A stretch of DNA of 64,000 bases from positions 310,001 to 374,000 of the forward strand of contig QPGO01000058.1 of the NCBI GenBank assembly GCA_008632985.1, read 5' to 3'. Shown one piece after another: positions 1,560 through 60,826 of this stretch. The notes beneath the pieces are model-generated. The model was not told the origin of the DNA. It ran no database searches and was given only the letters and a program-made list of their open reading frames with translations. The DNA comes from Psammoneis japonica. Its lineage: Eukaryota. The translations under genes and the position numbers were made by a program. The first letter of the stretch is position 1; each line of letters starts with the position of its first letter.

Positions 1560-1687
1560 TCTCAAACAAAGGCTCGTTTGGCGCTTGCATCTGCAGCGGG
1601 CACTGCAGTGTGTGTGCATCAAAAGGAAGGAGGAGAAAAGATGTGCTCGCACACTCCTTGGGCTTTCCAAGACAGGGTCAGAGCTTG

Positions 1688-1990
1688 TGCACACAACAAC
1701 ATGTGAAAAAAGTGAGGTGCGCAGCTCCTGTGGCAAGTGACAAGACAAGGGGCTCAAACAACACATTCTTCTTCTTGTGCAGCCAATGGCTTGAAGATGA
1801 AGTGGTCCCAGATGAGTTTGCAGCCACCCAACACTGAGCTGCGGTGCAGCAGGATGAGAGGTGTGTGCTCATTTGCGCTTCTTGCCACACTTGCGCAAGA
1901 GCGATGCTGCGTCCACAACACCAATCATGTCAAATTGATCTGTCCGCTGGCCACGCCCCACTCCCGGATTTAGATTCGGATTCCGCTCAC
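1688..1990 (+). repeat. ~300-bp dispersed direct repeat (second copy at ~2870-3255)
   Basis: Shared blocks GCACACAACAACATGTGAAAAAAGT, CATTCTTCTTCTTGTGCAGCCAATGGCTTGAAGATGAAGTGGT and GCCCCACTCCCGGATTT. Confidence 0.8.
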
Positions 1991-21299: not shown

Positions 21300-24200
21300 A
21301 TCATTGGCATTTTCTGCTTAACTCTCATCTCATCACAGCGTTTGGTTTTCATGGTGCCACATCTTTCATTTTTGCCACTCTCTTGTTTTTCTGTCCCTGT
21401 GTCACAAGAAGTTGACCCAACATCAAGCCTTTGCACAGCTCTGGCTTTTGCCACTTCTGCCGCTCAGCCAACTCTCTCTCAACCTCACTTGCTCTGAGGG
21501 GTGCTGGCTGTGCGAGGCAGAGAGTGCTTGTCGTGCACAACACTGAGAAAGCCTCCTTCCTGCCCTTCAGCATGAGCACAAGATAGCCAGCTTTTGTGCC
21601 TTCCTCTTCTCTCTGGTGTTTGGCTGTCACACCGGCAGCAGTGTGCCCTGCACCAAAGACAGGAAAAGAAGAAAAAAGCTGTGCAGCACAGTGTGGCCAT
21701 GTGCTGACTGCACAGTGAGAGCAATTTTTTTCTCACTTTTGCAGCATCATGTTCTTTTTTGCAAGAAATGGCAGTGGCAACAGCAGCAGGAAGTGGCAAA
21801 TGTGCAAGCAGGGGGCAGCAAAAAGCAGCCACTTGGTGCTGTCATGACAGCTTGTGGCAGCCTGCTCAAAAAGAGTTGCAGTTTCTTTTTTTTTCAAAAA
21901 GAACTTTCAGTTTTCAGCCCAGTTGTGCCACAATTGCACTTTGTGCTGATGTGACATGTTTGCACATGCTGGATGTGACAAACTTTTGTTTTGAAGGGTT
22001 GCTTGGTGTGCAGGTGCCAAAGACACATGCAAGTGCAGACTTGTTGCAATGGCGGGTGGTGGCCAACTTGTCCACCATTTCCTCTGAGTTTGGGATCCAA
22101 CCCAGCAGATGCTCTGGCATGGCTGGCTCTCTGCCCACATGTGGTGTTGTGCTGTGCTGGTTGTGCATGTGTGAGAGAAAACAAAGAGATGGGAAAGTGA
22201 GGCTGAAGAGCTCAAGCCATTGTGTCCAATGCAACAAAGTTTTAAAAGGAAAAAATCAGAGGCACCGCACCAAAAACTGAGGATGGAACAGAGAAGCAAA
22301 AGAACCTTTTTTTTGTTTTGAATGAGCTCTCAGCCCAAACAAGCCAAGAACAGCCTAAGACAGAGGAGCTCTCACAAGAAAAAAAGCCACTTCAAAGGAG
22401 ACACAATGGATGTGGCTGGGAAACAGCCAATCCAATTGAGAGAGCAAATTGCTCACCAAAGCTGTGTGCGCAGTGCCATCTGAATGAAGCAGAGGCAACT
22501 TGGCTTGCTTGCGACATTGTGCATGATTGGGCAGGTGTCTGTGGGGTTCCACCCCTGCTGCCATTTTGCAGCATGCCACCCCCCTTGCATCACAGCAGTG
22601 TTTCATGCCTTCTCTGTGCTTGGATTCCTCAATGGCCACTGAGTCTTCATGGAGTGCATTGGCTTGTGCCCCCTGTTGTTTTGTGCCAGTTGCACACAAA
22701 TCTCTCCCCACAGCATGCTGAAGCTTGCTTCTTTTCTTGCACTTCACCTCTTGTGTCAACCCAATCCTAGCACATCAATCTGAGTTGGCTCTGGGCTCAC
22801 ATGCAGTGATCACCCACATGAAAACACACGCAACTGAAGCCTGTTTTGTCATGTCAAATTTTGCAACACCCATCATGCCCACCAGCAGTGGTGTCTGGGA
22901 TTCATTCATGTGATGACAACATGCCTGCACATGCAGCACCCGATCTCCTCTTGCCCCACAAGGAGAAAGAGCAATGTGTTTGCAGCTGGGGCATGAAGTG
23001 CCATGATGTCCAAGAGAGTTTTCATGCTTGAGCCAAAGCAGGCAAAGACAAAGCTTGTGCCAGTCAATGTGTGTGTCTGTGGCTTGGAGGCGACTTGGAA
23101 AAAGTGGAGAAATGGGGAGTGAAGTGGCACTGGTGAACACACCTGGGAATGTCTTGCAATGCCAATTGACAACTTGGTTCAGGCTCCTTTGGCAAGGCAT
23201 CATTGGAGTGTCAATCAACTGTGCTCTTTTGATGGTGGCAAGAACCCCTCTGCACCCTTGCTGTTGGCAAAGATGACAACTCTGATGGTGGTGGTTGACC
23301 ATCAATTCTTTATGATGAAGGGTTCTGACAAGCTGTGTTTTCACTGTCCCAATGTCCCAATGAACTCCTTGTTGATTGAGACAAAGACTTCACCATGCAG
23401 CAAGCACAACCAAACGTTTGATGAGCACAAAGCATTTGCCAAGCTAAAAGGGTGCCAAGACAGATTTGAAGGGCTGAGTTGATTGGCAGTGCTGGCACTC
23501 TTGACTTGTTTTGACAAAATCTTGCCAAACCTTGCACCAAACTCACCAAAGTTGACAAAGTTGCCAAAGCTGACAAAGTCACCAATCTCACTGAAGCTGA
23601 CAAAGTCACCAAACTTGTTGCCAAAGTGGACAAAGTTTCCAAAGTTTGGCAAAAAGTTGAGAAAGTCGACAAAGTCACTAAACTTGCCAAAGTCACCAAA
23701 ATTGATGAAATCACCACAGCTGACAAAGTTGCCAAAGTTGATGAAATCATCAAAGTTGGTGAACTCGCCAATCTTGCTAAAGCTGACAAAGTCACCAAAC
23801 TTGCCAAAGTGGACAAAGTCACCAAATCTCAGTGCTGACAAAGTTGCCAAAGTTGCCAAAAGTTGAAAAGTTGCCAAACTTGCCAAAGCTGACAAAGTCA
23901 CCACAATTGATGACATCACCACAGCTGACAAAGTTGCTAAACTCACCAAAGCTGACGAAGTCACCAAACTCACCAAAGTTGACAAAATTGAAAAAGCAGT
24001 CACCAAAGTGGACAAAATCGCCAAAGTCACCAAAGTTGACAAAGACACCAAAGTTGACAACAAAGTCACCAAACTTGACAAAGCTGACAAAGTTGAAAAA
24101 GTTGCCAAAGTTGACAAACTTGCCAGAATCGCCAATGGCAGTCACTGTCGTCAAAGGTGAGAGACACACAACATGCCAGCCAGAACCCTTGTGTTTGATC

Positions 24201-25177
24201 TGACTGTGGGTGACAGCATCTCAATTGTGTTTGAAATCAGAGGTTGCCACAGAGGAGCCGATGTGCCTGATGATGAAAAGATGAGACTGGATTTTCTTTC
24301 ACACCATGTCACTCACCCCAATCCAACCTCTGTTGACCCCACTCCTGGGCCCACCCCGACCTCCATCGAAACTCAAAGTTCTTGGCCCAGTGACAGACCA
24401 AGCAAGAGTGCAGCAAGATCACAGACATTGGAGAACAAACTGCTGTGTGTGGCAAATGACAATGAGTCTGGAGCTAGCCAGCACACATCACATCATCTCA
24501 ACTGCATTGCCGCCATGGATCGAGACTTGTTTTGGTCACTGTGAACAACGAATTGCACAGCGGACTGGAGGCCTCAAGTTCGTTGCTACATTGTTTCCTT
24601 CCTGGCAGATTTTTCCTCAAGCACCTTATGGTGTAGACCCAGGTCCGACACGGGAACGCGTTCGACCCACGTGAGCGTTCCTCCACGACCTTCTGCTGAT
24701 TCCTGGCGATGCGAGCCAAACCATTTGCATCGAAATGCGAAAGCAACAGCCCTTGTTGTCTTCAGCAAACTCGGTGCACCAATCCTGAACCTGTTCTCCA
24801 ATGCGGCTGCAGTGATCAAGCGGTTCCGCTTCCGAAATCCGCTCCCAAACTGGGGCACACGGACCAAAGACCGAAACCTGTCTGCAGAGACCAGTGCAGT
24901 CGCATCCTTTGCATCTGGGTTCGCGTCATTCATTGGAGTTCATTGTGTTGAAATGGAGACGCTTTTCCACAAGGCTGCCGCTCTCATCAATCACCAGAAC
25001 GAGGCAGCAGCACTGGCGATGCTTGCTGCGGTGACCGTGAGGACGAAACACGTTGGCAGTCATGATCGGATGGTTGACAGCAATGTGTTCTCGGTTCTTG
25101 CTTTTCCATGTTCGCAGCTGTCGTGTGACGGTCTTGGAGCCTCACGTTTTCAGGCGCCATCTGTCGAGAAACGTCAT
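21300..25177. mobile_element. Decayed repeat/TE block 2
   Basis: Strong TpA depletion and Tyr-free ORFs. CpG is depleted up to ~24500 but retained in 24636-25177. Confidence 0.75.
23505..24130 (+). repeat. ~9-bp-period degenerate tandem array (AAAGTTGAC/AAAGTCACC/AAAGTTGCC/AAAGCTGAC)
   Basis: Visible periodicity over ~630 bp. Translates as KVD/KVA/KVT or TKS/PKL repeats. Confidence 0.9.
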
Positions 25178-25693
25178 TATACACATGCAACATCATTCGC
25201 TCTACGGTCATCGTGAGGGCATCGATCGTATGGGCGGGCCCGCCTCACGACGTTTTCAGGGGCTCCGTTTCTGTCGAGAACTCTGAGAATTCTCGTCATG
25301 CATGTATCATCATGCATGTATCATCATGCATTACCATTTTAAAATATAAAAATGATAGAACTTCAGTGATGAATATAAATTTTATTTTCACAGCCGTTAC
25401 CGCGCGCATGCAATGGAATTTTGGCGCCAAGAGCTGGTCAAGAGTCAGAAAAATTCCAATGAAACGTGGCAGTGTGAGGTGTGAGCTCACAAGACTCGTT
25501 TGAAACTCAAAAAGAGGCCAACGGAATGTCCGAGTTTGACCACGAGATCAGCTTCCGATCGGCCCATTCTTTTTGGTTGTTACGAGAGTACGTACATTCG
25601 CATTGCTAAGTATCCCCACCTGACTCTCTTGCGTAATTGCATTTTCAAAACATGACACACAAATTTGCTGTAAGACTGGAAGAATATCAGGAG

Positions 25694-28167: not shown

Positions 28168-29556
28168 GTTGAAAACAACGGCGCTGAAACTAAGGTCATT
28201 GCGAATTGCAAATCTGTTGCGCATGTGCAAGGTGCAAGATCGCAACCGATGCGACGTGGGCGGGTGCGCGGTAGCGTTTTCCCGCCATTTTTTTTATTTC
28301 ATTTGAGAGTGATTTCCGGGCTTCTTCACTCTGCTCATCCACGACCAAAACTGGAGCCTGTTTCATCTACGCAGGATCAGCACGATGAGGGAATCTTGGC
28401 AGTGGAAATGTGCTGGGTGCGCACATCGCATCAGATCTTCTCATTGTTCCTGATCATTCATCACGGCCACGCACACCACTTTCGAATCACCGTTGCTGCT
28501 GTCGGGCGTCTCGTTTTCGAGCCCATTGCACCCACGGTGCTGGCCTGGGCAGGCCATGTCTCTTTGATGCTGCCCTCAACACACCATGGATGATGTTTGC
28601 AGTCATTCCAGCCACATCCATGGCATCCATTGACAAGAACGGAAGCCCTGCGACAGAGAAGCGCTTTCGCTTCATGATTTTTGGGGCAAGCTGCACGTTT
28701 TCTTCCTTTTCCCCTGGTTTCAGCAAACAGCTCCAACTCTTCACAGACAATTTTCCACGGGCGTGGGTCTTGTTTGCAGCAGATGCAAAGAAAGGGAACA
28801 TCTTCCCCTTCACACTTGTGCTTTGCCTTCTTGAACGGTGGGAGACAGGAGAGTTGGGCGTCGGAGGGCATGGTGGCACTTTTGGAGCAGATGCTTGACA
28901 TTTTGCAAGGAGGAGGGTTTTGGCTCTCTCTGTGACAATTTTGTTTCTCCTTGTTGTGTTTGTTGTTTGTGACATTGTTTTTGATGTGTGCAAATTTGTC
29001 TTCGATCGTTGTGGACAATTGCACGCAAATCGAGCACCACATGCGATGGGTCCATCAGCAATTTGTTGTTCTGCACAGATGGAGACACAACAACAGCAAC
29101 ACAACAGACAAAACGAGAACTTTCATCATGCAATGGGAAGTCAAGTGCCGCAATGGTGAAAACAACATTTGTGGAGTTCTTGCTGAGACTGCTCTGCACT
29201 GCGGCAATCATCTTTTTGAACGCGGGCTGGCACTCAGTTTTTGAACATGACAAGCAAGCACAATGACCTTGTCACATTGAGCAATCCTCCAGCTCAATTG
29301 TCAATGACTGCCACACCCATTGCAGAGGAGGGTGTGTGATGAAAAATGTCATCTGCCCGCAACCATCTCCAGAATGGAGCCAGTGCAAGCCAAGGATGAG
29401 CAGCACTGTTGCCAGCAATGACAAAGTCTTTTTGGTTTTGTTGATCAAAATGATGATCAGGACGATGCAACGAGTCTGGACAGGGCTGCACAATGGAGTC
29501 TGAGTGGGACAATGCAACGGATCACTGCACGACGAGATCAAGCCAAGAGTGATGAG

Positions 29557-29949
29557 GATGTGTTCCAGACACAGGCGGGCAAATCCATGTGACATTGAGC
29601 CCGTGGAATTCTGCGTGCGAGCTCCGCAGCAAAATTGTCAGGCAATGCATGTGTCAATGATGCCAACAGAAAATGAGGCAATTTTGTGAATGCACAAACT
29701 GTCCATGATTGAAGCACATCATTTTTATTCAGCCAGGTGCATTCTTCAGACATTGCAGAATGCACCTGGTGCATTGTTGTGTTCCTGCAATTTTGTCAAA
29801 TGAAAATCTGCGGTTTTGCAAAACAGCGAGTCTGGAACATTTTTTGGAAGATCACATGCAGAAATGCACACTCGAAACATGTGACGGATGACAAAAATGA
29901 CTGTGTCACACGTCAGCACTGCAAGCTCCCGCCTGGGGCTGGGTGCATC
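29557..29949 (-). mobile_element. MITE family A, diverged inverted copy
   Basis: GATG...CATC ends, flanks TGAG/TGAC. The interior is reverse-complementary to copies 1 and 2 (GTGACATTGAGCCCGTGGAATTCTG, CCAACAGAAAATGAGGCAATTTT). Confidence 0.7.
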
Positions 29950-30232
29950 TGACAGTGCCAGCTGCATCCCACACCTTCCAAGTTTGAAGAGACACCTCAA
30001 TGAGATTGCTGCTTGCAAGAAATGCATTGAAAAAAAGCGTTGATGCTCCCATTCTCCTGCAGTTTGTTCACATCTTGAAGAGCAACAACTTCAATCAAGC
30101 GATGCATCAACCAATGTTGCAGAGCAGTGCAAAGGTTCAAGGAAGAAAAATGTGCCAAGCTGGAGCAGGTTCAGAAATCAGTGGCACAGATTGTGACATG
30201 GTGGAATGATTGGCTGTTGCAGCAACTGAAGG

Positions 30233-30487
30233 CCTGTTCCAGCCCCAGGTGATGAGAAATCCATCACGTGAGAGGCTGATTTTTTGTGCAGTTTAGCACA
30301 ATGAACTCCTTCAATTTTGGCATCTTTTCAAAAATCAAAAGGCAAGTGTGCACCCAAAATCACATGCAAAGTGCACACTTGCCCTTCGATTTGGCAAAAA
30401 AAGGATTTTGAAAAAGTTCAATGTGCCAAATGCAAAAATGGGAAATGATGGGTGTCAACCCTGTGCGCATCACCTGGAGCCAACAGG
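30233..30487. mobile_element. Small TIR element with internal hairpin
   Basis: Ends CCTGTTCCAGCCCCAGGTGATG / CATCACCTGGAGCCAACAGG. Internal perfect 13-bp inverted repeat GGCAAGTGTGCAC..GTGCACACTTGCC (30341-30383). Confidence 0.55.
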
Positions 30488-30835
30488 AGTCATTTGAAGA
30501 TGTTGCATGAGTCACAATTGATGTTTTGCACAAGGAAAAACAAAAAATCTGAGCTGAAATGCTGTCTGACCTACGGCATTTTTGCCTTCACCATGTGAGT
30601 CAAACTGCCGTCAATCCAGATGGCATTTCAATTGATCACCCAAGAAGTTGACATTCACACACGGATGGATGGATGGAAAGACTGACAACAATCATTTTTG
30701 GTGCTCTCCTGCAAAATTTCTGCGTGATGACTCTCAGGACCTGACTCACCTTCAATGCAGTGCCAGCGATTTTGATGGTCTTGCTCCACACCAACCAAAC
30801 CAAAATGATGCCTGAGCCTGCCATGAAACATTGCA

Positions 30836-31230
30836 GATGTGCTCCAGCTCTGGGTGGGACCTCACACTGCTGAACCATGACATCAACAGTTTTTTAGATT
30901 GCGTCGCATGTTGCGCACGTGCATTTCTGCATGTGACATTCTGTAAAATTGTTTCATGCTCCCTGTTTTGCGAAGCCAAAGGCTTTCTATTTTCAACATT
31001 TGTGAGAATGAAAATGTGCTGGGTGCATTCTTTAATGTCTGCAGATGCACCCAGGCAAACTGTCAATGATGTGCTCCAAGTGTGAAGGAGGAGATGCATT
31101 CGTAAAATTGCCTCTTTTCCTGTTGGCAATCATTTGCATTTTCATTGCCAACAAATTTGCTACGAAGCTCGCACACAGAATTCCACGGGCCAAATGTCAC
31201 ACGGAGTCCCACCCAGGGCTGGAACCCATC
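30836..31230 (+). mobile_element. MITE family A, copy 2
   Basis: Same TIRs as 1161-1559, flanked by TGCA/TGCA. Confidence 0.85.
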
Positions 31231-31287
31231 TGCAGCAAGAAAAGGATGGCAAAAGAAGCAAGATGGAAAGTTTAAAATGGTGCGCTG

Positions 31288-31675
31288 GACGTGCTCCAGC
31301 TCTGGGCAGGACCTTGCACTGCTGAACTGTGACATCGACAGTTTTTTGGATCACACTGCATGTCGCGCACGCAGAAAGGTGCGAGACTTTTGTGAAATTT
31401 TGTGTCATTTTGTGGCACACTTGTTGAGTGATCGTCCAACAACTTTTGACATTTTTTGTTGTGGCACGACTCTGTCATGTCTTAAAAATTGCATGGGGCA
31501 GGCGCACTTGCAAAAACGTCAAGTGGCAAGAGGCACAATTGTGCCACAAACTTGGCTGTTCATTTGATGTTGAAGACAAATGTGTCCGTCAATTAATTCT
31601 CGCACTGCGGGACTCACATGCAGAATTCTGCAGGCTCAATGTCACAAGGAGTCCCACCCAGGACTGGAACCCGCC
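31288..31675 (+). mobile_element. MITE family A-related copy (same ends, different interior)
   Basis: GACGTGCTCCAGCTCTGGGCAGGAC...GTCCCACCCAGGACTGGAACCCGCC, flanks GCTG/GTTG. Confidence 0.75.
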
Positions 31676-31954
31676 GTTGCTGCAAGCTGCCACCTGGTCG
31701 CCATGCGCCAATCCATGGGTGGTGGAGCAGAGGCTGCAAGTGCCTTTCTTGGTTTCTTGAATCTTCCAGGTGGGAACTCCTTTCGTTCTGAGGCTCGGTC
31801 TGCAGGTGAGCCACACCGAGTTGGATCACGGGATTGGATCTTGTCAGACTTCCGTCAGCCACAGGTGGAACCAGGTCAGATTGCAGATCAGATTTGACAT
31901 CTTGATGCATCGCAAAGCAACATTGGTTTTGAGATTCCAAATTCCCAAATGACA

Positions 31955-32520
31955 ACAAACGCTGACAAGCAGACAACAAGAAGTGTTGCCAAGATGCTTC
32001 ACATCTTGTCATGACATGATGATGTGACAAAAGAACCATGCTGTCATTGCTGCTTTGCACTTTGCATGTGTGGCCACATCATTGAACATCGTTGTCACTC
32101 AGTGTTTGCAACAATGCTGAGGAAGAAAAAGCCATCACTCTTCTGCAATTGAAAGAAACCAAAGAAATGTTTTCGTGTTGAAATTTCGAATTGCACAATG
32201 AGTGCTTGTCACTTTCCTCATTCAATGTTTCTCCAACAAATGACCCATGTTCCATGTGGCATCATTGGTTTGTCAAGCCACTCCATTGCCGTGCGACCTT
32301 TCTCATCTTCGTTTCGAGCACTGGAAGACTTTGACTGCAATGCCAAGGATGTTCCTTGCCCTCATTGCTGAATCTCATGCCGTTCTTCTGTGTCACAATT
32401 GTGTGATGTTGTGCCATTGTCATGATGACAGCACGGAATCTTCCAAATTTGATCCGACATCCAATCCGGATTTTCAGATTGGTGTTTGCTCTGAAGATGG
32501 TCCAATCCGAGATGTCGGAC
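31955..32520 (+). repeat. ~560-bp repeat (inverted copy at ~38275-38830)
   Basis: GACAACAAGAAGTGTTGCCAAGATGCTTCACATCTTGTCA and CCAAGGATGTTCCTTGCCC occur as reverse complements at ~38770-38810 and ~38445-38465. Confidence 0.8.
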
Positions 32521-33339
32521 AAACGCTTTCAGTTTTTCAAAATCAAGCAAGTGGGGGACGCGGCACTCAAACAGCATGGAATTCTGTGTGTCATGCTTCG
32601 CCAAGTTGCAAATCAAAATCACAATGGCGAAGCAGGTTGAAACTGGCAAGCAGTGGAGAATGTTCAAATGACAATTGGAGGGAAAGCAACGTTGTCGAGC
32701 TTGTCCTGGACACATGTTTTCTCATGCAAATGGAACTTTCATTCAGAATTTTCCCAAGTTCACCATGGTGAAGCGTGGGAAATCACTCGCCAAATTGCCA
32801 CACAAATCCCAGCAATTGTCCAGCGATGCTTCACAGAGCTGCAGCCAATGAACAACTTCTGTTCCGATGTCAAACTGGCACAACTTGTTGTCAGACATGT
32901 CAAAGCACAACTGTCATTTGGCAGAGTGTTCTTCCCAATGTCAAATGTGGTCAGAAGCAGTCGTGGCTTTCCACCGTGCTTTCATCGTGCTGTCAATTTT
33001 ATAACACGGTGAAGTGCGCACGTAAATTCGTGCCAGGTTCTACAGCAGTCCCCCATTTGATCGACTGAAAGCGTTCATCGGTCCCACAAAGGCCGCGGAT
33101 CGACTTTTTGACTCGATGGACTAACATTTTAATGGGTTATGAAGACCGAGCCAATCGTGCTCAAAGTAGCAGGACGACGGCCGGACGGATTCGCACATTG
33201 TCCGATGACGTCAAGATAACGTCATGGAAAACCGACAAAACAGCTGACATTTTTATTGCCTTCAGACATTTAAAAATATTTGCCACACCTTATTCCCGCT
33301 CCCGTCACAACTTTTTTACAGTTAGTCTAGGCCGACACC

Positions 33340-34218: not shown

Positions 34219-35884
34219 GTGTATTTCAAGTTCACTTCTCCCCACGACACGGAATAAAAAAAGTCGGCTTACAAAATCTGATGTGGTCAAAGTTTCAATT
34301 GGAAAGAAAAGAATTAGCGTACATGGTCGATGCGCAACAGAATGTAGTCACTTGACAGAAAACTTCACAAATCTCGGTCAAGATATATGAATAGATCCTG
34401 TTGCATAATTAAATCTCCTTACTTGCTTAATTTTGCATGGAGTAGAGTTGAGAGTCCATCCCAGTCACAACTCAACATGGCGACGTAGTTCCTTGTTTAA
34501 TTGCTCCTTGCCTGTTCTATCGTTTTTTATACTACTACATATTCCTTCCCCCCCTGGTTTCCAGGTTGCTTTTTTTCCAAGTCTTGGGTTCTAGTTTGGC
34601 ATCGATCCATTTTGCCGTTTCCTCTTTGCTGGCCGTCCGCAAAGCCAGCGTGGTTTCCGAGTGAACACCTCAAAGGCACGCTCGTCATTGTGGTCTCTAC
34701 ATGGAACAATGGAACATTTCGACAATAGCACGGAAACAGTGGGAGTCACTTCTCGCGGAACTTGCCCCTTGGTGGTAGCCTGTTCGGGCCAATCTAAAAT
34801 GTCCAAAACGGGTTGGGGTTCCAGCTGCTGAAAGACTTGTTCCGGGTACGTCAAGTTGGTGAGTCTGTGTGGGGCGTGGAAAAGGTGTAAATGGGAATCA
34901 TCCACAGTCATGATGGCCAGTGCGGTTTGCCATTCCGTCTTGTTGCTGTTGCTGCACTGTTCGACCAACTTTATGGAAAACATCAATTGACTCTCCAAAG
35001 GTGACTGCAAAAGGCACAATTCTGCTGAACAGATTTGTGGTTCAATCAGTGTTTGTCTTGATCAATTCAAAATGGACAATTTGTGTTGAGCTTCTTGCCA
35101 TTGGACCATCTTGGAATGCTTTTCAATCGTGTCATGAATGTCTTCTTCTGCTTCCTGTCCATTTGGCATTCCACCAATTCTTGCAACACAGGAGAATGGA
35201 CTGACAAAAAGTCTGAAAGCAAATTCACTTGCTGGGCATGTGGTCCAAGAGCAAGCTGTGCAGTTTGAGTTGGCATTCCAGTTTGTTTGCCACGGCCGAA
35301 TCGGCCAATTGCAGCAATTCAGCTGTGATTTTGTCCACAAATTGGATTGAAGCTGAACGGCAATGTGGCACTGCATGTCGGCCAACCACAAGTCATGGCA
35401 GTTGGCATCCGACATGGGGCTCTTGGTGGACAGTTTGGAAAAGGGTGAAAAGGCAGAGCCAACTGGAGACCAGCAAAATGCTTGGGGCAAAAGAGTTGCC
35501 AAATGCAGGGGAAAAACATTGCTCATTTGAAGATGGGATGCCACACAGCAGCCTCATGGTTGGAAGCGGCTGTGGTGGTGGGTCACTGGTGTTCATGTCA
35601 ACAGCAACAATGCCTCAATGCATTTGAAGGGTTTGCCTGACTTTCATTGCAACCTCACAGACAATGCCAGCATTGCTCTTGACAGGATTTGAACAAGATT
35701 TTAGTTTGTCACACACAATTGTGTGTGGCTCTCACTCTGCACATGATGCGTGATGTCAGTCCTTCGGCTCCTGCAATGGTCTCTGCATGGAGACTCATCT
35801 GCCATTTTGACAGCAGCAAGGAGTTGTTGTTTTCTTCCACCCAGTCATCTTCAATTTCTGTCACTCCCCATTTTGCTTGAGGAG

Positions 35885-37240
35885 TCCACAGCAATGGATC
35901 CAGAGCCCACATCGTCAAAGCCGTTGAAGACCATGACTGGGAAATCAAAGACAACCCAGAACTGGTCAAGTTCATTTGCCATGTCAACAACAATGAATGC
36001 AAGGAAATCCTTGCCTGCAACAAAATCATGCACCACATCAAGCAAGAAGATGAGGATTCTACCCTCTGGAAGTTCTGACACATCGTCTCACATGAAGGAC
36101 CACATCTGAACCCCTTGCTGTCATTGCCAAGGACAATCCTGTCACCTGTGCCATTTGCGCACGCGAACATGGTTTGCTTGAGACTGATGGCTGAAATGCT
36201 TCCCAGACCACAGCTCTGAGCCAGAAGAAGCCATTCCTCATGGCCAACCAAGCCAAATTGCGCTCCTTTTGCACTGCCCATGATGCAAGTGCAAGCATGA
36301 AGTGCCCTGGACTGCAAGCATGCCTTGGCCCTCAATGAGTGCAATGGCAACCGCAAGTGGAAGATGCAATGGACCTTGAGATGACTCAGCTTGGTGAGTG
36401 CAAGGTCTTCCACGACTGCGGACATTGCAGGGACTCCAGTGCTCCATCAGGACACAAGAAGATCAGGGTGCATCTCATCTGCAATGTCAAACATGATGGA
36501 TGGCACAAAGCACAACTTGTTTGCTGATGGCACCTCACCAACGCACCCATTGACAGTGTCTGTTCTGGAGTGGTGTCTCTCCAGGCCTGCAAATGATGAT
36601 CTTCCTGGCAGAAATCAATGGCCTGGAGACTTGGGCGACTGACATTGGGAATGCCCATCTCAAAGCTGCGACCAAGGAGAAACTGCACATTGCAGCAGGC
36701 CCCAAATTTTTGGCAAGCAGGAAGGACACATCCTTGTCATCCACAAGGCCTTGTGCAGACTCGCAGCTCTGGCCTCAGTTGACATGAACGCTTTGCCGAT
36801 TGTTTGCATGCCAAAGGTTTCTTCTTCCTGTGCTGCACCGAACCTGACATCTGGCATGCAGGAATGGTGATCACTGCAAATGTGTTTGCCATTAAAAGAA
36901 CCCCAGGCTTTTGCAGACACTCTCATGGAGAAATGCAAGTTCAAGCTCAAGGGCACCAGACCATTGGAGCTCCATCTTGGTTGCAACTTCACCCGTGATC
37001 CGGGCAGCACCCTGTGTTGCATGCACATTGAGCACATGGTTGACAGCTGTGTGTGCCTCTTTGGGGAGAAGCCTGGCACTGATGTGCTTTCCCCTCTTGA
37101 CAAGGGGACCACCTGAGCTCGACACCTCCAATTGAGGCGCTGTGGCCAGAACATTGCAGGCACACTGCACTGGAAAACCATGCCAAGCTCCTGTGGGTCC
37201 CTCAGCATCAGACAACACCCAGAATCTTCATCCCTGCATC
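35885..37240 (+). mobile_element. Ty1/Copia (CoDi-like) pol remnant: linker plus reverse transcriptase
   Basis: LWKF*HIVSHEGP, GHKKIRVHLICNVKHDGWHKAQLV, DSVCSGVVSL, WATDIGNAHLKAATKEKLHIAAGPKF, KCKFKLKGTRPLELHLGCNF and SPLDKG match diatom Copia pol motifs, with stops and frameshifts. Confidence 0.9.
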
Positions 37241-38274
37241 ACCCTCCTCTGTCATCTCTTCATCAAAAAGAAGAGTCTCATCATGATTCTGCACAGAGTC
37301 TTCATGAGCATCAACTTGTTCCCCAGGCACAGGGTGGGTGTTGCCAATTCCTTTGTTGTGTGACAAAAATCAAGAGGTGGTGCATCAGGGATGTCCATTG
37401 CTGGAGATGCAGCACCTGCTGCAAGGGCAAAGGCTGGCTGACTGGGATGCTGCTTGCCATCCAAATTGTTGGTGGAGGGTTGACAGGCCAACTTGAACCC
37501 AGAACTGGGGTTGCCAGGTTCTTTGGAGCACCATCCAATGTCCTGTCAGAGGATGCAACAATGTCATGATGCCTCATGAAATGCTCAATGTCCTGGGTGA
37601 CATGCTTCTGCTTGGATTTCACCAACGGAACATTGGCTGTGAAGTGCTTGTGCCAGCATGCGCATTCTTGAACAGAGTCCTCAGCAGTGGATCACTGCCT
37701 TCGGGAGCTTGTGGCACCTCATCCATGTTTTGCAGGCTGTCAATGAGGCAGTCTTTGTGATGCCAGAATACATTGGTGAGGAGAGACTCAACAGGAATCA
37801 ACTGTGCAAGTGCCTCCTGCACAACACTGGGCATGCAGTGGGCACAGCAAGTCCCTGATTCTTGATGCAGAATTGGCCTGCTCCTGGTTCTTTGTTGATG
37901 GCCGAGTGCAATGCATGCACACAGCACAGGGCAGGAAGAGATCATTCACAAAGAAGAACCTTTGTTCAAAGTGGCAGGTTGCACAGAGATGGGCTGCATC
38001 ATGTCAACAAGCCATGGCTCTCTCTTCCTCAACATTGAGTCTGCAACCAGCAGGGGGTTGTCAAACAAGTTCACAGGAGTGTGAGCACCTCTGACAAACA
38101 GATCAACAAGAATGCTTTCGTGAGAATGGAACAAAATTGTTGGCAAGAGGTGACATTGGATCACATCACCAGGTGAACCAAGCCGGATCAGATTGCCAGA
38201 TTGACTCCTTCACAACCCATTAAAATGTCAGTTCATCAAGTCAAAAAGTCAATCCGTGGCCTTGTGGGACTGAT

Positions 38275-38830
38275 CCACCATCTCAGATCGGACGGTCTTC
38301 GGAGTGAAATGTTTTGCTCCGAAGACCATCCAGTCCAAAATCTGCATCAAATGTTGGATCTAATTTGCAAGATTCTGTGCTGTCATCACAACAATGGCAC
38401 AACATCACATGATTGTGACACAGAATGGCCAAGATTCAGCCACAAGGGCAAGGAACATCCTTGGCTTGTGGTCAAAGTCTTCCAATGCTCAAAATGAAGA
38501 TGAGAAAGGTCACATGGCAACAGAGTGGCTTGTCAAACCAACAAAGCCACACAGATTGTTGGAAAATCATTGAACAAGCAAAATGACAAGCATTTGCCAC
38601 ATGATTTGAGATTTCAACACAACAACATGCACTGGTTTTTAAATTGCAAAAGTGATGGCTTTTTCTTCCTTGGCATTGCTGCGAACACTGAGTGACAATG
38701 ATGCTCAATGATGCGGGTCACACATGCATGTAAAGTGGCAACAACAGCATGGTTCTGTTGTCATGTTGTCGTGACAAGATGTGAAGCATCTTGGCAACAC
38801 TTCTTGTTGTCCGCTGTTGTCAGCACTTTG
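38275..38830 (-). repeat. Inverted copy of 31955-32520
   Basis: Reverse-complement similarity along the whole length. Confidence 0.8.
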
Positions 38831-39920
38831 TTCGCGATCAGTGCCAGCAGCAAAAGGCTCCAACTGCCTCCAGTGCCAGTGGCACACAGGATCCCATCAC
38901 GCCAGTGCTGGCAGCAACATGCAGGCTCCCATTGCAACCACTGGCCAGCAGCAAAAAAGCTCTGTGGTGGCATTGTCAGCAGAGGCAGTCACATTTTCAG
39001 CAGCTGCACGACTGGCCATCGCAGTGGTCTCATTCATGATGGCTCCCATGCTCTCCACAGCAGATGTGTTGTCCATGTTAGTCCAATGGATCACTGCAAC
39101 ATTTGACAGTCTTGCTGAACACTGCTGCAATGGCAACGTCTCCATTTGCATGCTCCAGTTGTGTGTCATCATTTGCCAACTTGCGGTTTTGCCTTTTCTT
39201 GACAGGGTTGATCTTGAAGTCTGCAATTTGAATGCAAGCCCCACTGCAACAAAAGAAAAGTCACTGTCATTCCCAACTGCAATGACAATCGTTTTTTGAA
39301 TCAGCATTTGCTGAATTTTGCTGTCGGTGTGAAATGCCCCATGAGAGCAATTTCCAGTTCACCCGGGTGCATCCTCATCTCCAACTCTTCAACCACACTC
39401 TCTCCGTGACACTCCTCACACACACTCTGGTGCAAGACAACATGATGACACGTGGTCTCACAATCCACACCAACCACTGGTTTTCCCTGATGACGCCTGT
39501 GAGTTTCTCAATCTCATGCAGGAATTGTGACCCATGGTCAATTCCCATGGCTGCTGCTCAAGAATGCATCCCATGCAATTGTGACGGTGTGGATGACAGG
39601 CTGCCATAACGCATGACACCTGAGGCAGCACAGGAACTGCGTCAATCCAGTGCTTCTACTTGTGTTGCCATCATCAGCAGCGACGTGTCATTCCGACGGT
39701 TGGTGTGATGTGGGCATGATGTGATGATTTTTGGTTTTTGCAATCTGTGATCTGATGGAAGGACAGGCAGAGTGCGACCATTTTTTGAACCTGTCTCCAT
39801 GCATGTGTGTACCGGTAGACTAGAAGTAGTAGACGAGCCTCACCCGTGACTCGAGGCCAACGCGTCGTCACAGGCCATCATGACACGACCACATTCCTGT
39901 TGCTGTTGTTGGAAAACACC

Positions 39921-42350: not shown

Positions 42351-42809
42351 TGTGAGATTATGAGAAAGGTATGTTGAATGTTGAATGTGAAATGTGATGC
42401 CGCGTGGCGTGGTGCTTCGAAAGATCGAGTCGAAGGATTCAAGTTTTGGCATTTTACTTCGTTTTTGAGCATTTTTTGAACCTTCTGCCTTGTACCGGCA
42501 TTGTTCAGTTGGCAGTTTTTCTTCATCCTTCGGCATGTGGAGGGTCTATCCAAGAAGTGTGCCACAAGAACACCCCCAGAGCCAAACACCACCAGAAGCT
42601 TGTGACTGAGCATCATCATCATTGGGGTGCCTCACAGAGTGTTGGTGTGCCAAAGTTGCTTCAGCAAAACAAGTGAGAAGCTGCAAAAGTTGGCAAAGAA
42701 GAGTCATTCCAAGAAGGGCTCAATTTTAATTCTTCTGGTCTTGTGGCAAGATGTCTTGGTCTGTCATCTGGGGAGTGGCCCAGGATGGTCAGCATGGAGA
42801 GCAACCCAC

Positions 42810-43540
42810 CAACAACCCACAAAGCAGCAATCTTGTGCAACCCAGTCAGCATCGCTTCATTGGCAGGCTTTGCAAAACAGTCTGTGAGTTGTTCAACAGC
42901 ATCAACGGCAGAGCAAATGCAGCAATTTTGTCCCATCTGGTTTGCAGCCAACACTTTCAAATGTCTTTCCCATTTCCAGCACACACCGCCATTGTTCTTG
43001 AAAATTTTGCCGTGGACTTTTGGGGTCAAAGGTTTCTTGGCTGGAAATTCATGGGCCTTGAGCTCCCTTGAGATTTCCATGGCTGGTGTTGCCTCCTCAC
43101 ACAGTGTGCACAACAAAACAGCATGCTTGCTTTCTGTGCCAGGACAAGCAGTCTTGGTGTGCAGCAGCCACAGCTTCCACAGAGTGGGCAATCCTCCAGC
43201 ACAAGTGTGGTGGTGCAACCATGCCCCAATCTTGCAGCACTGTGATCTTCCAACAGTGCTTCTTCTCCATTCCAGTTGCCAACAAAGTTGGTTGGTGACA
43301 AAGTCAGCATCAACACAGACCTTGAGGTCTTTGTTTTTGACCACAGCTTCAGAACAGCCCCTTTTCCATGTGTTGCATGGAGGCACTTTCATGTCCACCA
43401 AGCAGCTTTGCAGTGCTCCACCTTTGCCAGGTCAGCAGAGAATTTTGCACACTTGTGGGTTCTGCAGGCAATGTCATTTGAGTCTTGTGCACTTCTCAAC
43501 ACAGCTCAATTCCCTGGCAAGACCACTACAGCAGCCAAAC
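42810..43540 (-). mobile_element. Ty1/Copia RT C-terminus and RNase H remnant
   Basis: DIACRTHKCAKFSAD, LKVCVDADF, PTLWKL, TESKH, KIFKNNGG and EQLTDCFAKP correspond to DIAYA.HQCARF, VYVDADF, TESEY, FEDNSG and QLADYLTKP. Confidence 0.85.
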
Positions 43541-44839
43541 AACTGATCAAATGGATCAGAGATTGAGTGCCTCTCAATCAACAGGATTGCAGAAGAAGGT
43601 TGTGACCTTCATTCTAACATCAACCACTGTTTCCATTTCCTGATCTGAAGATGCCCCTTTGAGCACTCCTCTCTTTCCCAGCTTTCTTGACCTTGCTCCT
43701 TTTTCTGCTTCTTTGCTTCACATCTCTAAACTGCAATGTTGCTCCACAACCCCCCTGTTTTGCCCACTCCATGCTCAACACTGACATGCTCTGTCAGGGT
43801 TGGACACTCTGCCAGGGTGGGTCAACAACACACCAAGTCAGCTTCAGCAACAAGTCCATCAGATGGGCACCCAGCATTTGATTGAGAGTCTTCTCTCTGT
43901 CTCTGGCCACTTCCGTCATTTGCCCATGCCCTGAACAGAAATTTTGCAATGCTTTGTTCACACTCTTTGTGACAAAAAGCTGTGGCAGCATGTCAATCTG
44001 TTGTCTTGCTTGAATTTCTAACTTTGTCAGTTTTCCTCTCATGATCACATTGCTTCTCTGTTGTTCTTGAACACTGATGTCCCTGCCCAACAATTGCAAG
44101 CTGTTTCAGCTGTTCAAAAGTGCTTGTTGTTCATGTGCTGCTGCGCAAGCCCTTCACCAAGCTGAGTGCCATTCCCTGATGTTCACAAACCTGAAGCTGC
44201 TGACAACCCTGAAGATGCTGGTGGGACACTCAAGATGCAGCAGCAGAGACTGTGGATGACCTGGACAGTGAGTCTGCTGACAAACTGCCTGGCAAAAACA
44301 CCCCCACTCCATCCCTTGTTCCCTGTTCCCATTCACCATCCTTAAACCAGAGCCTGTTTCTGTTGCCTCTGCACATGACTCTTTTTTGCCAAAATGTTTT
44401 TGTCATTTGTCAACCTCCTGCCTGACTTCCCTCCCAGCCTCCTGCTGTTCCCTGTGTTGTTCAAGTTGGCCAGCCTGAGTCTAACCTCATCATGCTCACA
44501 CACCCCTGTCATTTGTTTCATCCATTGGTGGATTCAAAACCCTCAAAATGAAGGCTCCTGATCCCCTGTTGACAGCCACTTTTTGCCTGAAACCATGAAG
44601 ATTTGAGCTTGCAATTTGCCTTGCAACAGTCATCTCATCCATCCTCAAAAGGTTGACAACCAAGTGGCAGCCAAGGTAACTCAACAGTCATGCAGACAGC
44701 TTTTGCTTTTACATTGGCTGAACACTTCATTGTGTGGGTCCTTTTGACTGCACAACCATTTGACTTGTTTCTGCATGGCGCCAAATGCAAAGCAGAGTCT
44801 GAAGAAATCTGAGCTGCAATGTCTGTTTGCCAAGTCTCT

Positions 44840-45240
44840 CATCTTCTGGACAGCCTTGTCTCTCCATGGCAGCAGTGATGACAAAACTGGAGAATCAAGA
44901 CCAGGGTGCAATGGCCTGCCCACTGAAACAAAGTGTGGCCAGCCCCTCTTCCATGGGCACAGTCCCAGATGCTGTGCAAGATGTGTTTTGCCACCACAGG
45001 GAGACAACAGAAAATTGAGAGCTCCTTTGTGTGGAGCTTTGGAACACGTCCAATGAGACCAACTTGTTGTCCTTTATCAGGCAACAGAAAAGTTGGCTGA
45101 GGTTTCACACAGTCCTTGCTGATGCTGCCTTGGTTGTCCACGTGTGCAACAATGCGGAGAGCAGCCACACACACGACCCCACACATGCATTGTTCTGCAT
45201 TCACACCAGACATCATTCGACAATGCCCGTGGCTGGGACG
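44840..45240 (-). mobile_element. Possible second Copia RNase H C-terminal remnant
   Basis: RMMSGV...HVDNQG....KP and a terminal HGET loosely resemble CoDi LRMMGV..GDNQSV..P and FW.GDT. Confidence 0.45.
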
Positions 45241-46040
45241 AGGATTCTCTGGCATCAGCAATGGCTCCATGTGGAATGTAGAAGCTGTTCTTCTTGATGG
45301 ACTCTTGAGTTGTTGTCATCTTCTACCGCAATTCGGAAACCATTGTCAATTGTTCAATTTCTCTCCTTGTCACACGCGAAAAAAGGCAAAAAATTGTTGG
45401 TCCTGTAAGTGGGAGCGATTCGTAAACACGAGCTCGAAATTCGGACAAGCGCACATGTGGACGAGTGCGGGCATGACCGACATTCGCTCGGCGAATTCAA
45501 TTTCGCGCCAAAGTCAACTAATGCATAACTTTATGTACATTATCATTAAATCTCGATGATGTTGGACGTTGTTACGATGCTGTGATGATTTACATCCTGT
45601 GTTTCAGTCCAACACTTGTAGACTATCATGCGCAAAAAGGGTAATTTTTCTGCTTTTTTTGCATTTTTGAACATTTTTGCCTTTTCTGTTTGTACGGTAG
45701 GTTTTGTTCCTTGTCCATGCTGACTGTAGAATCCTCGCACTGCCGTGAGCACAGAATTATGGATTCATGGCCATGAGGACTTGTGTGAGGATGCCCTGAC
45801 CATGACAACTCTCCCGTTTAGGTCAACGCCACCGACCCACCAACTCGAGCAATAAAACAGCACTGAAGATGGGCGACGAAGGCAGAGCTTGAAACTGTGA
45901 CAGAATCAATTTCCCGAATGGAAAAGTCAAGTTGAACTTGATACACAAGCAATACACCTCCTTTTCTCAAAAGCTAGCACTGCAGGTTTTCTGTTGCTTC
46001 AACACATCAGTTACTGTTATTGAAAAGAATCGCACCCCGT

Positions 46041-53857: not shown

Positions 53858-54499
53858 AGAAATGGTGGTGATTGGTGCTTCTCCAACGATATCGTGGTGT
53901 TTTTGTGGAACAATGTGCATGTTTGAATGTGTCGGTTTGATTTAATGTTGTGTAGTCAGCTTTGTCTGCTGGCTGTAGATTGTGAAATGTGATAAAAGAT
54001 TGTTTTAGCATAGAGAGAATGTCCAATCGCTTCTTTCATCGAAACCGGTGTGAGTTGGCCTGTACTTCAAATGTTGATATTGATTCTTAGTAGCTCATGA
54101 CGAAGCAGGGGGGTGCCTCAGAGGGAGGGATGCAAATACATGATGACGACTTAGTTTTGAGATTGCGACGCACTGAAGCGTTACCGCATTCTGTGCTCTA
54201 CGAAGTAAAATGGATAAGAGATATGGGTGTCGCAAAAAGGAGAAATTCAGGGTACCGGAAACAAAAGAACGAGTGTCGAGTTTGACTTCTTTTGTTCCCT
54301 AATTGAGTTTGGTCCTAATCAGAAGCAGGCTGCTTGAAGAAGTCGCGGCTCGTTCTACTTTTGAACAATTGACCTTCCTAATGCCACACTTGGTGCAACC
54401 AACAAGGCCAATGATTCTTTACAAAGGAATTCACATGTGTTCGGTTGGCACGACTCACTCGCAAAGCACGTCTCGAGGTTGCGCGGTTGGATTTGGAGA

Positions 54500-55640
54500 G
54501 TTTTGAAGTGTTTTTGTGAAAATGTTTTTGTGCCCCTGTTTTGACCGAAAAGACAACAAAGAGTGCCACCGCCAGCCCGCTTGACCCCCAAGATTTGCCC
54601 GGCTCAGCAGCCTCGATTTTGCTGTGGTTGACAGTGTCCATGTTGGAACATCTGGAAGACAGGAAATTTAAGGAATCTGGATGTGTTGAAGAAAGACACT
54701 GATGCTGCTCCTCATGACGCCGTGGAGATTCTCTTTGACTCTTTGTGGTTGAAGCTTCATTGTTGCGCCGCCAGCCAATCTCTCTCGCCTTTCCACTTGT
54801 CCACTCTTTGGAGCAAATAATTTGGTTTGTTCAGTTTGTGCCATTTTGTCAAAATGGCACCACTGGGCATTTGCTGTGTTTGAAGTTGTTTGAAGTTTGC
54901 GTCAACAACTTCTGGGCAACCCATGGCTGCGACAAGCAGCCAGCAGCACATGTGCGCTGGCCAGCTGGGGGCTGCAGGAGTGGACAACAACCAAAGCAAC
55001 AACAAAGACAAATGTGGGGCAAAGCCTGACCCACAATGATGATGCATGTTGGCTTTGCACTGATGTGGCCTCACCTCAAGCACTTCATGGCTGCACACAA
55101 ACATTCTCCAAGCAGCGTGTGGTCCAAAAACAACTTTGTCGGGTGGGGAGCAACATTCTTTGCAAAGGTTTTGGAAGCAGAGTTTGCAGCATGAAAATGA
55201 ACAAACAAACAACAAGCACAGCAAAATGTCTCTTGATTTGTCAAGAGACACCAGTGTGCTGAAAAGAAGTGCGGGAGAATCTTGGCTTTCTGTGTGATGG
55301 TCTTTTTTGAGAGTGCTCCTCATTTCACATCAACTTTGTGCGCACACAATGAACATGCCCCAACATTTGCTGAGTTCTGGGCAGCAACTTGGCTTCTAAT
55401 TGCAGTTTGCAATGCTCCACAATTCTCAGCCATCTTGCTGCTGATGATGGACCCGCACATTTGGACATTGCTGTGCCAGGAAATGACACCACCGCGGCGC
55501 AAGCACAAAGTGGCCAGACAGCTGCAAAAATTTGACCCACTGTTGCACCATGTGTGTTAGGTTTCAATGGATCTTCTCAATCTCTGCAGAAATGTGCACA
55601 AAGCCAGCACCTCATGGTGCCAGTGACAAGCTCACCCACG
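54500..55640. mobile_element. Decayed repeat block 6
   Basis: Only a handful of TpA, TG/CA-rich. No recognisable protein motif. Confidence 0.6.
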
Positions 55641-55680
55641 CCATCCATCCATCCATCCATCCAATTGATCCATCCATCCA
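55641..55680 (+). repeat. (CCAT)n microsatellite at the block boundary
   Basis: CCATCCATCCATCCATCCATCC...CCATCCATCC. Confidence 0.85.
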
Positions 55681-55891
55681 CGTCTCATCATGTGTAAAGC
55701 ACAGTAAACTATGTACGAGCTTGCCCATGCTGTACAATCGCAAGCAAGAGTTGGCCGCGCTGTCAACAAGCTTGACACCATGCGAATGCGTATCTCCGTC
55801 ATGGGACATGATGTATGGAAGGGGCGAAGCCGGCGGCACATCTGACTGTTGTGTCATGCACCACCCAACCATGCTGGTATAAAAGGCAACC

Positions 55892-60530: not shown

Positions 60531-60826
60531 TTTGGGTTAACTCTCATGTCGAAGATGCGAGTGTATTCGCGCTGGTTGTGACGTGGGTGCGCCATGCAAA
60601 CAACACAGAATGCTTGCGGACTCTACCGTATTGAGTAGCGGGCGCATAGGAGACAGCACGACTGTTAAAAAAGAATACCACTGAACGGCAGTTGTTGGGG
60701 AGTTAGCCTTCTCTGCTGTTGAAGTTGCAGGAGGCATGAGCTGCAACGTGTTTCGTGGCCGACCATCTAAATCTCGATTCATATCCACCACCAAAGAAAT
60801 TATCAAAAAGCACCATTCTTTATCAT

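Follow-up and report, generated by a model that had tools for sequence, protein, structure and literature searches.

The 64-kb window studied here (the whole stretch of DNA analysed, 64,000 bp) contains, at 35887-37212 on the forward strand, what its sequence identifies as a frameshifted, dead and isolated remnant of a Ty1/Copia-type reverse transcriptase (RT). The conserved tyrosines of this remnant have all been replaced, mostly by cysteine or histidine, and this loss is the coding face of a wider dinucleotide feature: the remnant lies in one of seven blocks of the window in which TpA has been nearly erased in favour of TpG and CpA. The changes ran in one direction, hit both DNA strands, were resolved independently in different copies, stop at sharp borders and are specific for TpA and CpG. 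The explanation that we consider highly probable is that a dead Copia RT lies in a repeat block hypermutated at TpA and affected in addition by a separable decay of CpG, the hypermutation being targeted in a manner that resembles both the process described in the chlorarachniophyte Bigelowiella natans and fungal repeat-induced point mutation (RIP).

Homology of the remnant to Copia elements was established by three kinds of comparison:

35887..37212, forward strand: Ty1/Copia-type RT remnant (RVT_2 region), supported by tblastn, phmmer and profile alignment

A read-through translation of 36108-36593, with TGA read as Trp, was compared by phmmer with 1.84 billion representative proteins, of which 763 matched at E ≤ 1e-3. 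The top match was P0001 (E 1.1e-32), a protein of 1881 aa in which Pfam RVT_2 (PF07727) sits at residues 1367-1577 (E 1.9e-27) and of which residues 1156-1638 map onto 35887-37212 in tblastn. These two results confirm the first-pass annotation of this DNA, which had placed a Copia RT remnant at 35885-37240. From the phmmer matches we took as reference set 15 intact relatives, polyproteins of at least 1000 aa (1000-1900 aa) with ordinary composition (Tyr 3.4-5.3% and Cys 0.7-1.7% of residues). Frameshift-aware alignment of the profile of these relatives to the DNA gave a score of 511 over 36102-37129 with 9 frameshift events, and 35902-36102 is a further upstream piece that aligns to the same profile.

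The remnant contains at least nine frameshifts together with in-frame TGA stops, and its catalytic stretch is lost, the profile columns around Tyr-x-Asp-Asp (YxDD) aligning to gaps or to garbled sequence. Thus neither the YxDD motif nor the open frame of a functional RT is left. Single-frame pieces of the RT (eight, then three) matched no family in Pfam, the frame being too broken and too mutated. A second protein homologue search with 36339-36527 as query, aimed at longer proteins, gave no matches, and a near-relative search with the 162-aa read-through gave nine matches, mostly intact relatives, among which only P0169 (discussed below) was informative. A tblastn comparison of the 15 polyproteins with the entire window (E ≤ 5) revealed no further Copia domain near the remnant, the best match elsewhere in the window having E 0.002; nor were direct repeats resembling long terminal repeats (LTRs) found flanking it. 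Hence the remnant appears isolated as well as dead. The other parts of a complete LTR retrotransposon (gag, protease, integrase, RNase H and LTRs) were not found. The remnant resembles the diatom Copia-like (CoDi) elements, for which Pfam RVT_2 is the matching family, in that it aligns along the RT of RVT_2-bearing polyproteins; it differs in that only about 1.3 kb of RT is left here, and the likeness is drawn at the level of RVT_2.

Conserved columns were defined by at least 60% agreement among the 15 relatives, which gave 207 aligned columns. Conserved Tyr was kept at none of nine columns (five now Cys, three His, one Trp) and conserved Arg at three of 12 (Gln at three, His at two, and Cys, Trp, Leu and Ser at one each), while all other residues were kept at 146 of 186. 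Fisher tests against these other residues gave p = 2.2e-6 for Tyr and p = 2.2e-4 for Arg. Together with the TA counts given below, the value for Tyr excludes chance. At a threshold of 80% agreement Tyr was kept at 0/7 columns (five Cys, two His). The first-pass annotation had claimed that conserved Tyr became Cys or His and had proposed that an alignment count would show Tyr lost more often than other conserved residues; both statements agree with these numbers. It had also named the presence of Cys or His in intact relatives as an observation that would speak against it. At the nine Tyr columns, however, the relatives hold 112 Tyr, three His and no Cys among 128 residues. Because the relatives hold Tyr, never Cys and rarely His, and the window holds Cys or His and one Trp, the change ran from TAY to TGY or CAY. 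With a lenient frameshift penalty, TGC is read at the column of the lone Trp and TGT at the adjoining Tyr column; one more Tyr, shared by all relatives, falls on a frameshift junction as TG(C). When Cys and His codons were read as Tyr, 21 of 52 (14 of 24 for Cys) gained in profile score, compared with 7 of 115 codons of five control residue classes; the first-pass annotation had suggested this back-mutation as a check. The former Tyr codons are as follows, all on the forward strand:

36016..36018, forward strand: former Tyr codon, now TGC (ILACNK, column 61); Tyr in 14/15 relatives
36156..36158, forward strand: former Tyr codon, now TGC (AICAREH); Tyr in 15/15 relatives
36399..36401, forward strand: former Tyr codon, now TGC (QLGECKVF); Tyr in 13/15 relatives
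36453..36455, forward strand: former Tyr codon, now CAC (GHKKIRV); Tyr in 11/15 relatives
36561..36563, forward strand: former Tyr codon, now TGT (DSVCSGVV); Tyr in 14/15 relatives
36656..36658, forward strand: former Tyr codon, now CAT (GNAHLKA); Tyr in 13/14 relatives
36875..36883, forward strand: two former Tyr codons, TGC at 36875 and TGT at 36881 (DHCKCV); Tyr in 11/15 and 13/15 relatives, aligned with the lenient frameshift penalty only
37024..37026, forward strand: former Tyr codon, now CAC (MHIEHM); Tyr in 11/12 relatives
37048..37050, forward strand: former Tyr codon, now TGT (VDSCV); Tyr in 10/12 relatives

The first-pass annotation had quoted ten peptide strings against an assumed consensus. 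All ten occur when 35885-37240 is translated in its three forward frames, and GHKKIRVHLICNVKHDGWHKAQL does start at 36450. The consensus Tyr holds for ILACNK, QLGECKVF, GHKKIRV, DSVCSGVV, GNAHLKA and VDSCV, where 73-100% of the relatives have Tyr. Two strings agree in part: in KALC the relatives are uniformly Tyr (14/14), but the codon lies on a frameshift junction, and the two positions of DHCKCV are Tyr in most relatives, but align only under the lenient penalty given above. Relatives are not mostly Tyr at the first Cys of ECKE (4/15), the second His of MHHI (5/15), LICNV (eight Tyr, seven Phe) and KCKFKLKG (Tyr in 6/15), where the assumed consensus is weakly supported. EKLHI is not supported as a former Tyr, the relatives having six Cys, four Tyr, three Phe and one His. 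Two clear Tyr losses had been overlooked, AICAREH (36156) and MHIEHM (37024).

The dinucleotide composition around the remnant shows how far the effect reaches. Only two TA occur within the 1326 bp of the remnant, and 11 are seen in 34973-39809, where about 178 are predicted from the window's non-block TA share of 3.7%. Over 36108-36593 the window has 0 TA, 8 CG, 59 TG and 56 CA; the equivalent region of metagenome relatives has medians of 23 TA (range 13-43), 27 CG, 31.5 TG and 36.5 CA, as taken from the first 40 of 80 such relatives. These counts match the mass balance expected from conversion of both TA and CG to TG and CA. Seven sharply bounded blocks of this kind make up 23,000 of the 64,000 bp, with observed/expected ratios (O/E) of 0.04-0.14 for TA, 0.16-0.57 for CG, 1.70-1.86 for TG and 1.59-1.86 for CA:

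34973..39809, no strand: TpA-erased, CpG-poor block with the RT remnant; 11 TA in 4837 bp
28201..33000, no strand: TpA-erased block with high-copy repeats of about 450 bp; TA O/E 0.044, CG 0.51
1..3300, no strand: TpA-erased block; TA O/E 0.07, CG 0.30
21301..25200, no strand: TpA-erased block; TA O/E 0.06, CG 0.30
42401..45400, no strand: TpA-erased block; TA O/E 0.075, CG 0.16
54401..56300, no strand: TpA-erased block; TA O/E 0.14, CG 0.57
59501..60600, no strand: TpA-erased block; TA O/E 0.05, CG 0.34

Taken together, the blocks have a TA O/E of 0.06 and a CG O/E of 0.34, compared with 0.54 and 1.02 outside them, which is a nine-fold drop for TA. AT changes little (O/E 0.86 in blocks and 0.94 outside), AA and TT are unchanged, and only TA, CG, TG and CA shift much. 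The effect is therefore specific to TpA and not a general A>G drift. Block GC content (0.47-0.53) is like that of the surroundings, and the share of pyrimidine-purine steps (YpR) among dinucleotides is 0.244 in blocks and 0.240 outside. Because AT and AA/TT are unchanged, we rejected explanations by GC-biased gene conversion or by a general bias toward A>G.

Borders of the blocks fall within about 150 bp and adjoin TA-rich non-coding DNA. To the left of the block that holds the remnant, dense TA continues as far as 34972; the non-coding stretch 34222-34972, downstream of the open reading frame (ORF) for an FkbM methyltransferase, has about 30. To the right the border is equally sharp, TA being dense from 39810, the start of a Tim17-like ORF (Pfam Tim17 on 39819-40391). 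There is no TA at all in 31595-32999. The erasure is confined to discrete foreign or repeated regions that lie beside normal host DNA.

Several further observations concern the blocks. Long stop-free frames of 245-289 aa without a Pfam match occur on both block strands, among them 35712-36446 (reverse), 42677-43543 (forward) and 23344-24141 (reverse); they exist because TAA and TAG are gone, and gene finders would probably call them as spurious genes. The stops that remain in blocks are TGA. The TA surviving in block cores (69 sites, for example 35702, 36060, 36893 and 38221) are not random in context (chi-square p = 2e-10): CTAA/TTAG accounts for 30% of them (8% outside), TTAA for 16% (5% outside) and ATAT for 0% (8% outside). 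T-A-pyrimidine may have mutated fastest, or new TA may arise mainly in the surviving contexts, and we note this as a lead and not as a result. An ORF at 27451-28293 (reverse strand) carries only the N-terminal part of a P-type ATPase (domains E1-E2_ATPase and Cation_ATPase_N), and its upstream end enters the TA-free block by about 90 bp, the border lying at about 28201.

The decay of CpG can be told apart from the loss of TpA. The 58 conserved columns that have changed divide into 20 that a CpG-type change would revert, eight that a TpA-type change would revert (all of them Tyr), three that need another single transition and 27 that revert by none of these. CpG-type reversions include all four Asp>Asn, all four Glu>Lys and seven of the nine lost Arg (three Gln, two His, one Cys and one Trp), in keeping with the suggestion of the first-pass annotation that a separate CpG decay lay behind the Arg, Asp to Asn and Glu to Lys changes. 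CG O/E varies between blocks while TA is uniformly low, and the CpG deficit is accompanied by a matching excess of TpG and CpA. In P0004, an RT fragment from another assembly, all Tyr are gone, yet seven of 11 conserved Arg are kept. Conversely, the metagenome relative L049 has a CG O/E of 0.05 and a TA O/E of 0.70; the same combination of strong CpG loss (CG O/E 0.05-0.25) and ordinary TA (0.47-0.70) was observed in L049, L013, L003 and L025. Because metagenome relatives lose CpG only and P0004 keeps most of its Arg, the CpG decay is separable from the TpA loss, and in other hosts it occurs alone. LTR retrotransposons of diatoms are CpG-methylated, according to two reports (PMC2806351; PMC9998398). 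Decay of 5-methylcytosine (5mC) in methylated transposons resembles the present case in low CG, gains of TG and CA, and changes of Arg to Cys, His, Gln or Trp, Asp to Asn and Glu to Lys within CpA steps. However, it covers the CpG half only and cannot remove TpA.

Both strands are affected, as the first-pass annotation had held: five Tyr to Cys changes are A>G on the sense strand and three Tyr to His changes are T>C. Over all blocks TG and CA are nearly equal (2519 and 2548), as they are within the RT remnant (145 and 156), so that TpA has gone to TpG and CpA in about equal numbers with the other dinucleotides spared. Copies of the same repeat have taken different outcomes. In five repeat pairs within blocks (a sixth added no mismatches), 49 of 427 aligned YpR pairs have CA facing TG, compared with 7 of 500 in four control pairs from outside the blocks; for the best two of the block pairs, transitions and transversions number 68/15 and 55/6. 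One control pair consists of paralogous gene segments for leucine-rich repeat (LRR) proteins, 26260-27442 and 19655-20833, which are 75% identical over 1.2 kb and of normal composition.

Contigs of a DNA run, built by exact-word assembly, were compared with the window over 28000-40500; the run contains the window and may be its source sample. It is one of three listed runs with the window, all from a single sample, and no RNA run was among them. Summed contig depth over 35506-37173 is 4,900-66,500, against about 52 for single-copy DNA, and summed depths for the repeats at 29251-31752 and the RT remnant run from thousands to tens of thousands. Contigs differ from the window mostly by transitions, each of the four types accounting for 88-102 places and each transversion type for 9-15. 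Among the 40 differences listed (442 further ones exist), 11 have TG or CA in the window and TA in the other copy, and one is the reverse. At 30836-31672, repeat units about 450 bp apart (families D1 and D2, 82-83% identity) reach a summed depth of up to 78,000; this family is very high-copy and possibly satellite-like.

Three RT fragments from other public assemblies (P0004, P0122 and P0169; Logan, ENA) likewise carry Cys or His at these Tyr columns, frequently the one that the window does not have there; P0122 departs from the window in this way at five Tyr columns. P0004 has no Tyr in 335 aa, and P0122 and P0169 are also without Tyr or nearly so. The same process has thus left footprints in other data sets. 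Since both strands were hit and copies were resolved independently, one-strand editing of the RNA or complementary DNA (cDNA) of the element cannot account for the patterns.

Until a 2026 preprint measured it in one chlorarachniophyte, B. natans, no targeted hypermutation of chromosomal DNA from A:T to G:C was known. In mutation-accumulation lines of that species, 230 of 231 mutations in two integrated regions, one of a nucleocytoplasmic large DNA virus (NCLDV) and one of a virophage, were A>G or T>C; all lay on TpA, and they arose about 1000 times faster than the background (Mettrop et al., bioRxiv 10.64898/2026.01.13.699255, 2026). The same source reports 124 clusters of 1-kb windows poor in TpA and rich in CpA and TpG, enrichment of RT and DDE domains among low-TpA coding sequences, and a proposal that an ADAT2-like deaminase is the agent (bioRxiv 10.64898/2026.01.13.699255). 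The two systems are alike in that TpA goes to TpG or CpA on both strands, toward GC, within foreign or repeated regions; in both, low-TpA sequences are associated with RT and TpA-poor windows cluster. They differ in host, B. natans belonging to Rhizaria and the host here appearing to be a diatom (Stramenopila), and in the non-block TA share (3.7% here, 6.0% reported there). Completion is near-total here, whereas the NCLDV region of B. natans is given a Rho of 0.45. Strong loss of CpG coincides with the TpA loss here, whereas the term 'CpG' occurs 0 times in the accessible text of the preprint. What we have is a historical footprint alone, whereas a rate was measured in B. natans. The signature is accordingly not without precedent, having been described once before, in another supergroup lineage.

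Fungal RIP is similar in acting on repeated or mobile DNA by transitions in a dinucleotide context, on both strands, with sharp bounds and with death of transposon genes. It turns CpA into TpA, with the result that TpA and stop codons increase and GC falls. The window shows the opposite chemistry and direction: TpA is down nine-fold, GC is as in the surroundings, TAA and TAG stops are removed and inactivation is by missense; RIP is described as C-to-T in PMC3318451. Editing by animal APOBEC3 (on cDNA) or ADAR (on double-stranded RNA) also inflicts host-made transitions with dinucleotide preference on retroelements. However, its footprints are one-stranded, tied to the replication cycle and asymmetric, whereas here the strands are equal and copies diverged after insertion. 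A literature search found no report of the signature in diatoms, including the accessible text of 10.1101/2025.10.24.684338 and PMC2806351; subscription journals and preprint supplements lay largely outside its scope.

The sequence data show a transition process at the DNA level that is confined to regions, specific for TpA, active on both strands and later than insertion, together with a separable CpG decay. We propose that a Copia RT fragment would have integrated and that the surrounding repeat block would later have undergone a region-confined process at the DNA level. This process would turn nearly every TpA into TpG or CpA by an A:T to G:C transition on either strand of the palindromic step, and its coding effect would be the removal of every Tyr codon, TAY becoming TGY (Cys) or CAY (His). 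A second, slower decay of CpG to TpG or CpA would give the changes at Arg and those from Asp to Asn and Glu to Lys, which would be the ordinary signature of 5mC deamination on silenced transposons. Stops within the blocks would arise through the CpG decay, and inactivation would come from missense changes such as Tyr to Cys or His. By analogy, the TpA process may correspond to the targeted hypermutation that affects foreign or repeated DNA in B. natans, and it may work as a RIP-like genome defence of opposite polarity. As to the chemistry, our leading guess is an enzyme that deaminates adenine to hypoxanthine where a T precedes it on the 5' side. In the tRNA substrate of the ADAT2/TadA family, U precedes the target A.

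The same DNA-level process could instead start from a lesion on thymine, a modified or oxidised T that mispairs with G or is repaired to C. On the palindromic TpA step, T>C on one strand and A>G on the other leave the same double-stranded sequence, and hydroxymethyluracil in dinoflagellates, another group of algae, is a base modification that prefers TpA. We saw no evidence of such a modification in diatoms, and the only published proposal for the signature that we know of is adenine deamination by an ADAT2-like enzyme. We therefore regard a thymine lesion as rather unlikely.

An improbable alternative is general mutational equilibrium, in which TpA and CpG would be hypermutable throughout the genome, the blocks would be old unconstrained DNA and selection would keep TA and CG elsewhere. 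TA is indeed under-represented outside the blocks too, and the blocks are degraded repeats without recognisable genes, a Pfam scan of 146 ORFs of the window having found no family for any block ORF among them. However, the abrupt borders against TA-rich non-coding DNA speak against it, and TA O/E falls from 0.54 to 0.06 while AT, AA and TT do not move. Moreover, TA persists in a repeat piece just outside a block at sites where the partner inside has lost it:

38199..38274, forward strand: repeat piece inside block, with CA/TG at the partner's TA/CG; eight substitutions, all transitions
33077..33156, reverse strand: less-mutated inverted partner just outside the TA-free block, which keeps TA/CG

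Over the 80 columns of this alignment, two TA outside are CA inside and four CG outside are TG or CA inside. These pieces belong to inverted-repeat arms, 31954-33156 and 38199-38832, which are 75-93% complementary in pieces and bracket the FkbM gene (33331-34218) together with the RT remnant. Since the TA-free block ends, at about 33000, within the first arm, the erased region is not coextensive with the repeat unit.

ADARs are a metazoan family. Editing of A to I by an ADAR-like enzyme in the transcript of the element, fixed by reverse transcription and re-insertion, would suit a retrotransposon and the 5' U preference that the preprint gives for ADARs (bioRxiv 10.64898/2026.01.13.699255), and yet it is very improbable. 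RNA editing gives A>G on the sense strand only, whereas both transitions are found on the sense strand here and T>C is about as frequent as A>G, by the His and Cys counts as well as by CA and TG. Copies resolved the same sites differently after they had diverged, and the erased blocks reach well past the RT fragment into DNA where no other Copia domain was found. In addition, the preprint describes the same signature in single-copy integrated viral DNA of B. natans. The first-pass annotation had argued for a DNA-level process and against RNA editing, and the near-equality of TG and CA in the blocks and the divergent resolution of repeat copies bear it out.

Some long-read base-callers err at modified bases, and modified bases in silenced repeats could in principle have been misread, with CG and TA called as TG or CA. 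Diatom repeats are CpG-methylated (PMC2806351). Such a sequencing artefact is scarcely credible here: where the TA-free block is single-copy, contigs at about 52x, from a run that may be the source sample of the window, deviate from it by 1-5 letters, TA and CG are present in further copies of these families within the run, Tyr-free RT fragments occur in three other assemblies, and the frameshifts and the deleted catalytic stretch are real decay. A native composition of the family, avoiding TA and CG and with Cys and His ancestral, has nothing in its favour beyond the composition itself and can be set aside, since relatives have Tyr at these columns and normal TA (O/E 0.47-1.02 over 80 loci), the remnant is broken and other copies in the run hold TA.

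Some observations weigh against targeted hypermutation of repeats as we propose it. Two bins within a block are near single-copy summed depth, 35089-35505 (73) and 37174-37590 (74), and together with the repeat arm that crosses the block border they blur repetitiveness as the target; chromatin state and foreignness are the other candidate cues. A runs test for clustering of same-strand TG or CA in blocks found none (z -1.7 to +2.2), and there is hence no sign of the processive single-strand patches left by many deaminases, although pre-existing TG and CA dilute the test. TA depletion was seen in none of the 80 metagenome relatives, but that scan required Tyr or Phe in its pattern and so disfavoured decayed copies. 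As a record of past change, the signature might in principle also have accumulated slowly. Finally, the probable assignment of the host to diatoms was drawn from the nearest clusters of two host proteins and not from a marker gene. For the DUF6824 protein (2831-4870) and the hydrolase (8806-10530), the nearest protein-atlas clusters are commonest in Bacillariophyta, with scores of 0.95 and 0.98. Other long intron-free ORFs of the window encode a sulfatase, LRR proteins, a formin and the FkbM methyltransferase.

A further proposal can be put forward tentatively, as a possibility for which we have limited confidence. Diatoms may own a RIP-like defence of their own, in which a nuclear enzyme, most simply a DNA adenine deaminase with 5'-T preference, would be directed at silenced repeats and would erase TpA on both strands. 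This defence would be shared with chlorarachniophytes and old within SAR (stramenopiles, alveolates and Rhizaria), the enzyme would amount to a natural adenine base editor acting on chromosomal DNA, and Tyr-free pseudo-proteins rich in Cys and His in databases would be its footprint.

The present data have practical consequences for the study of algal genomes. Blocks without TAA and TAG yield long spurious ORFs on both strands, and decayed transposons escape profile searches, as the window's own RT pieces did with Pfam. TA-free blocks rich in TG and CA, together with Tyr to Cys or His changes at conserved columns, provide a cheap diagnostic that can be used for genome surveys, and this diagnostic can guide the choice of a genetically tractable organism for finding the enzyme. 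A saturated footprint on transposons of a probable diatom, with three more Tyr-free RT fragments, suggests that TpA hypermutation is not a one-species curiosity, and it may be part of a wider genome defence in marine algae.

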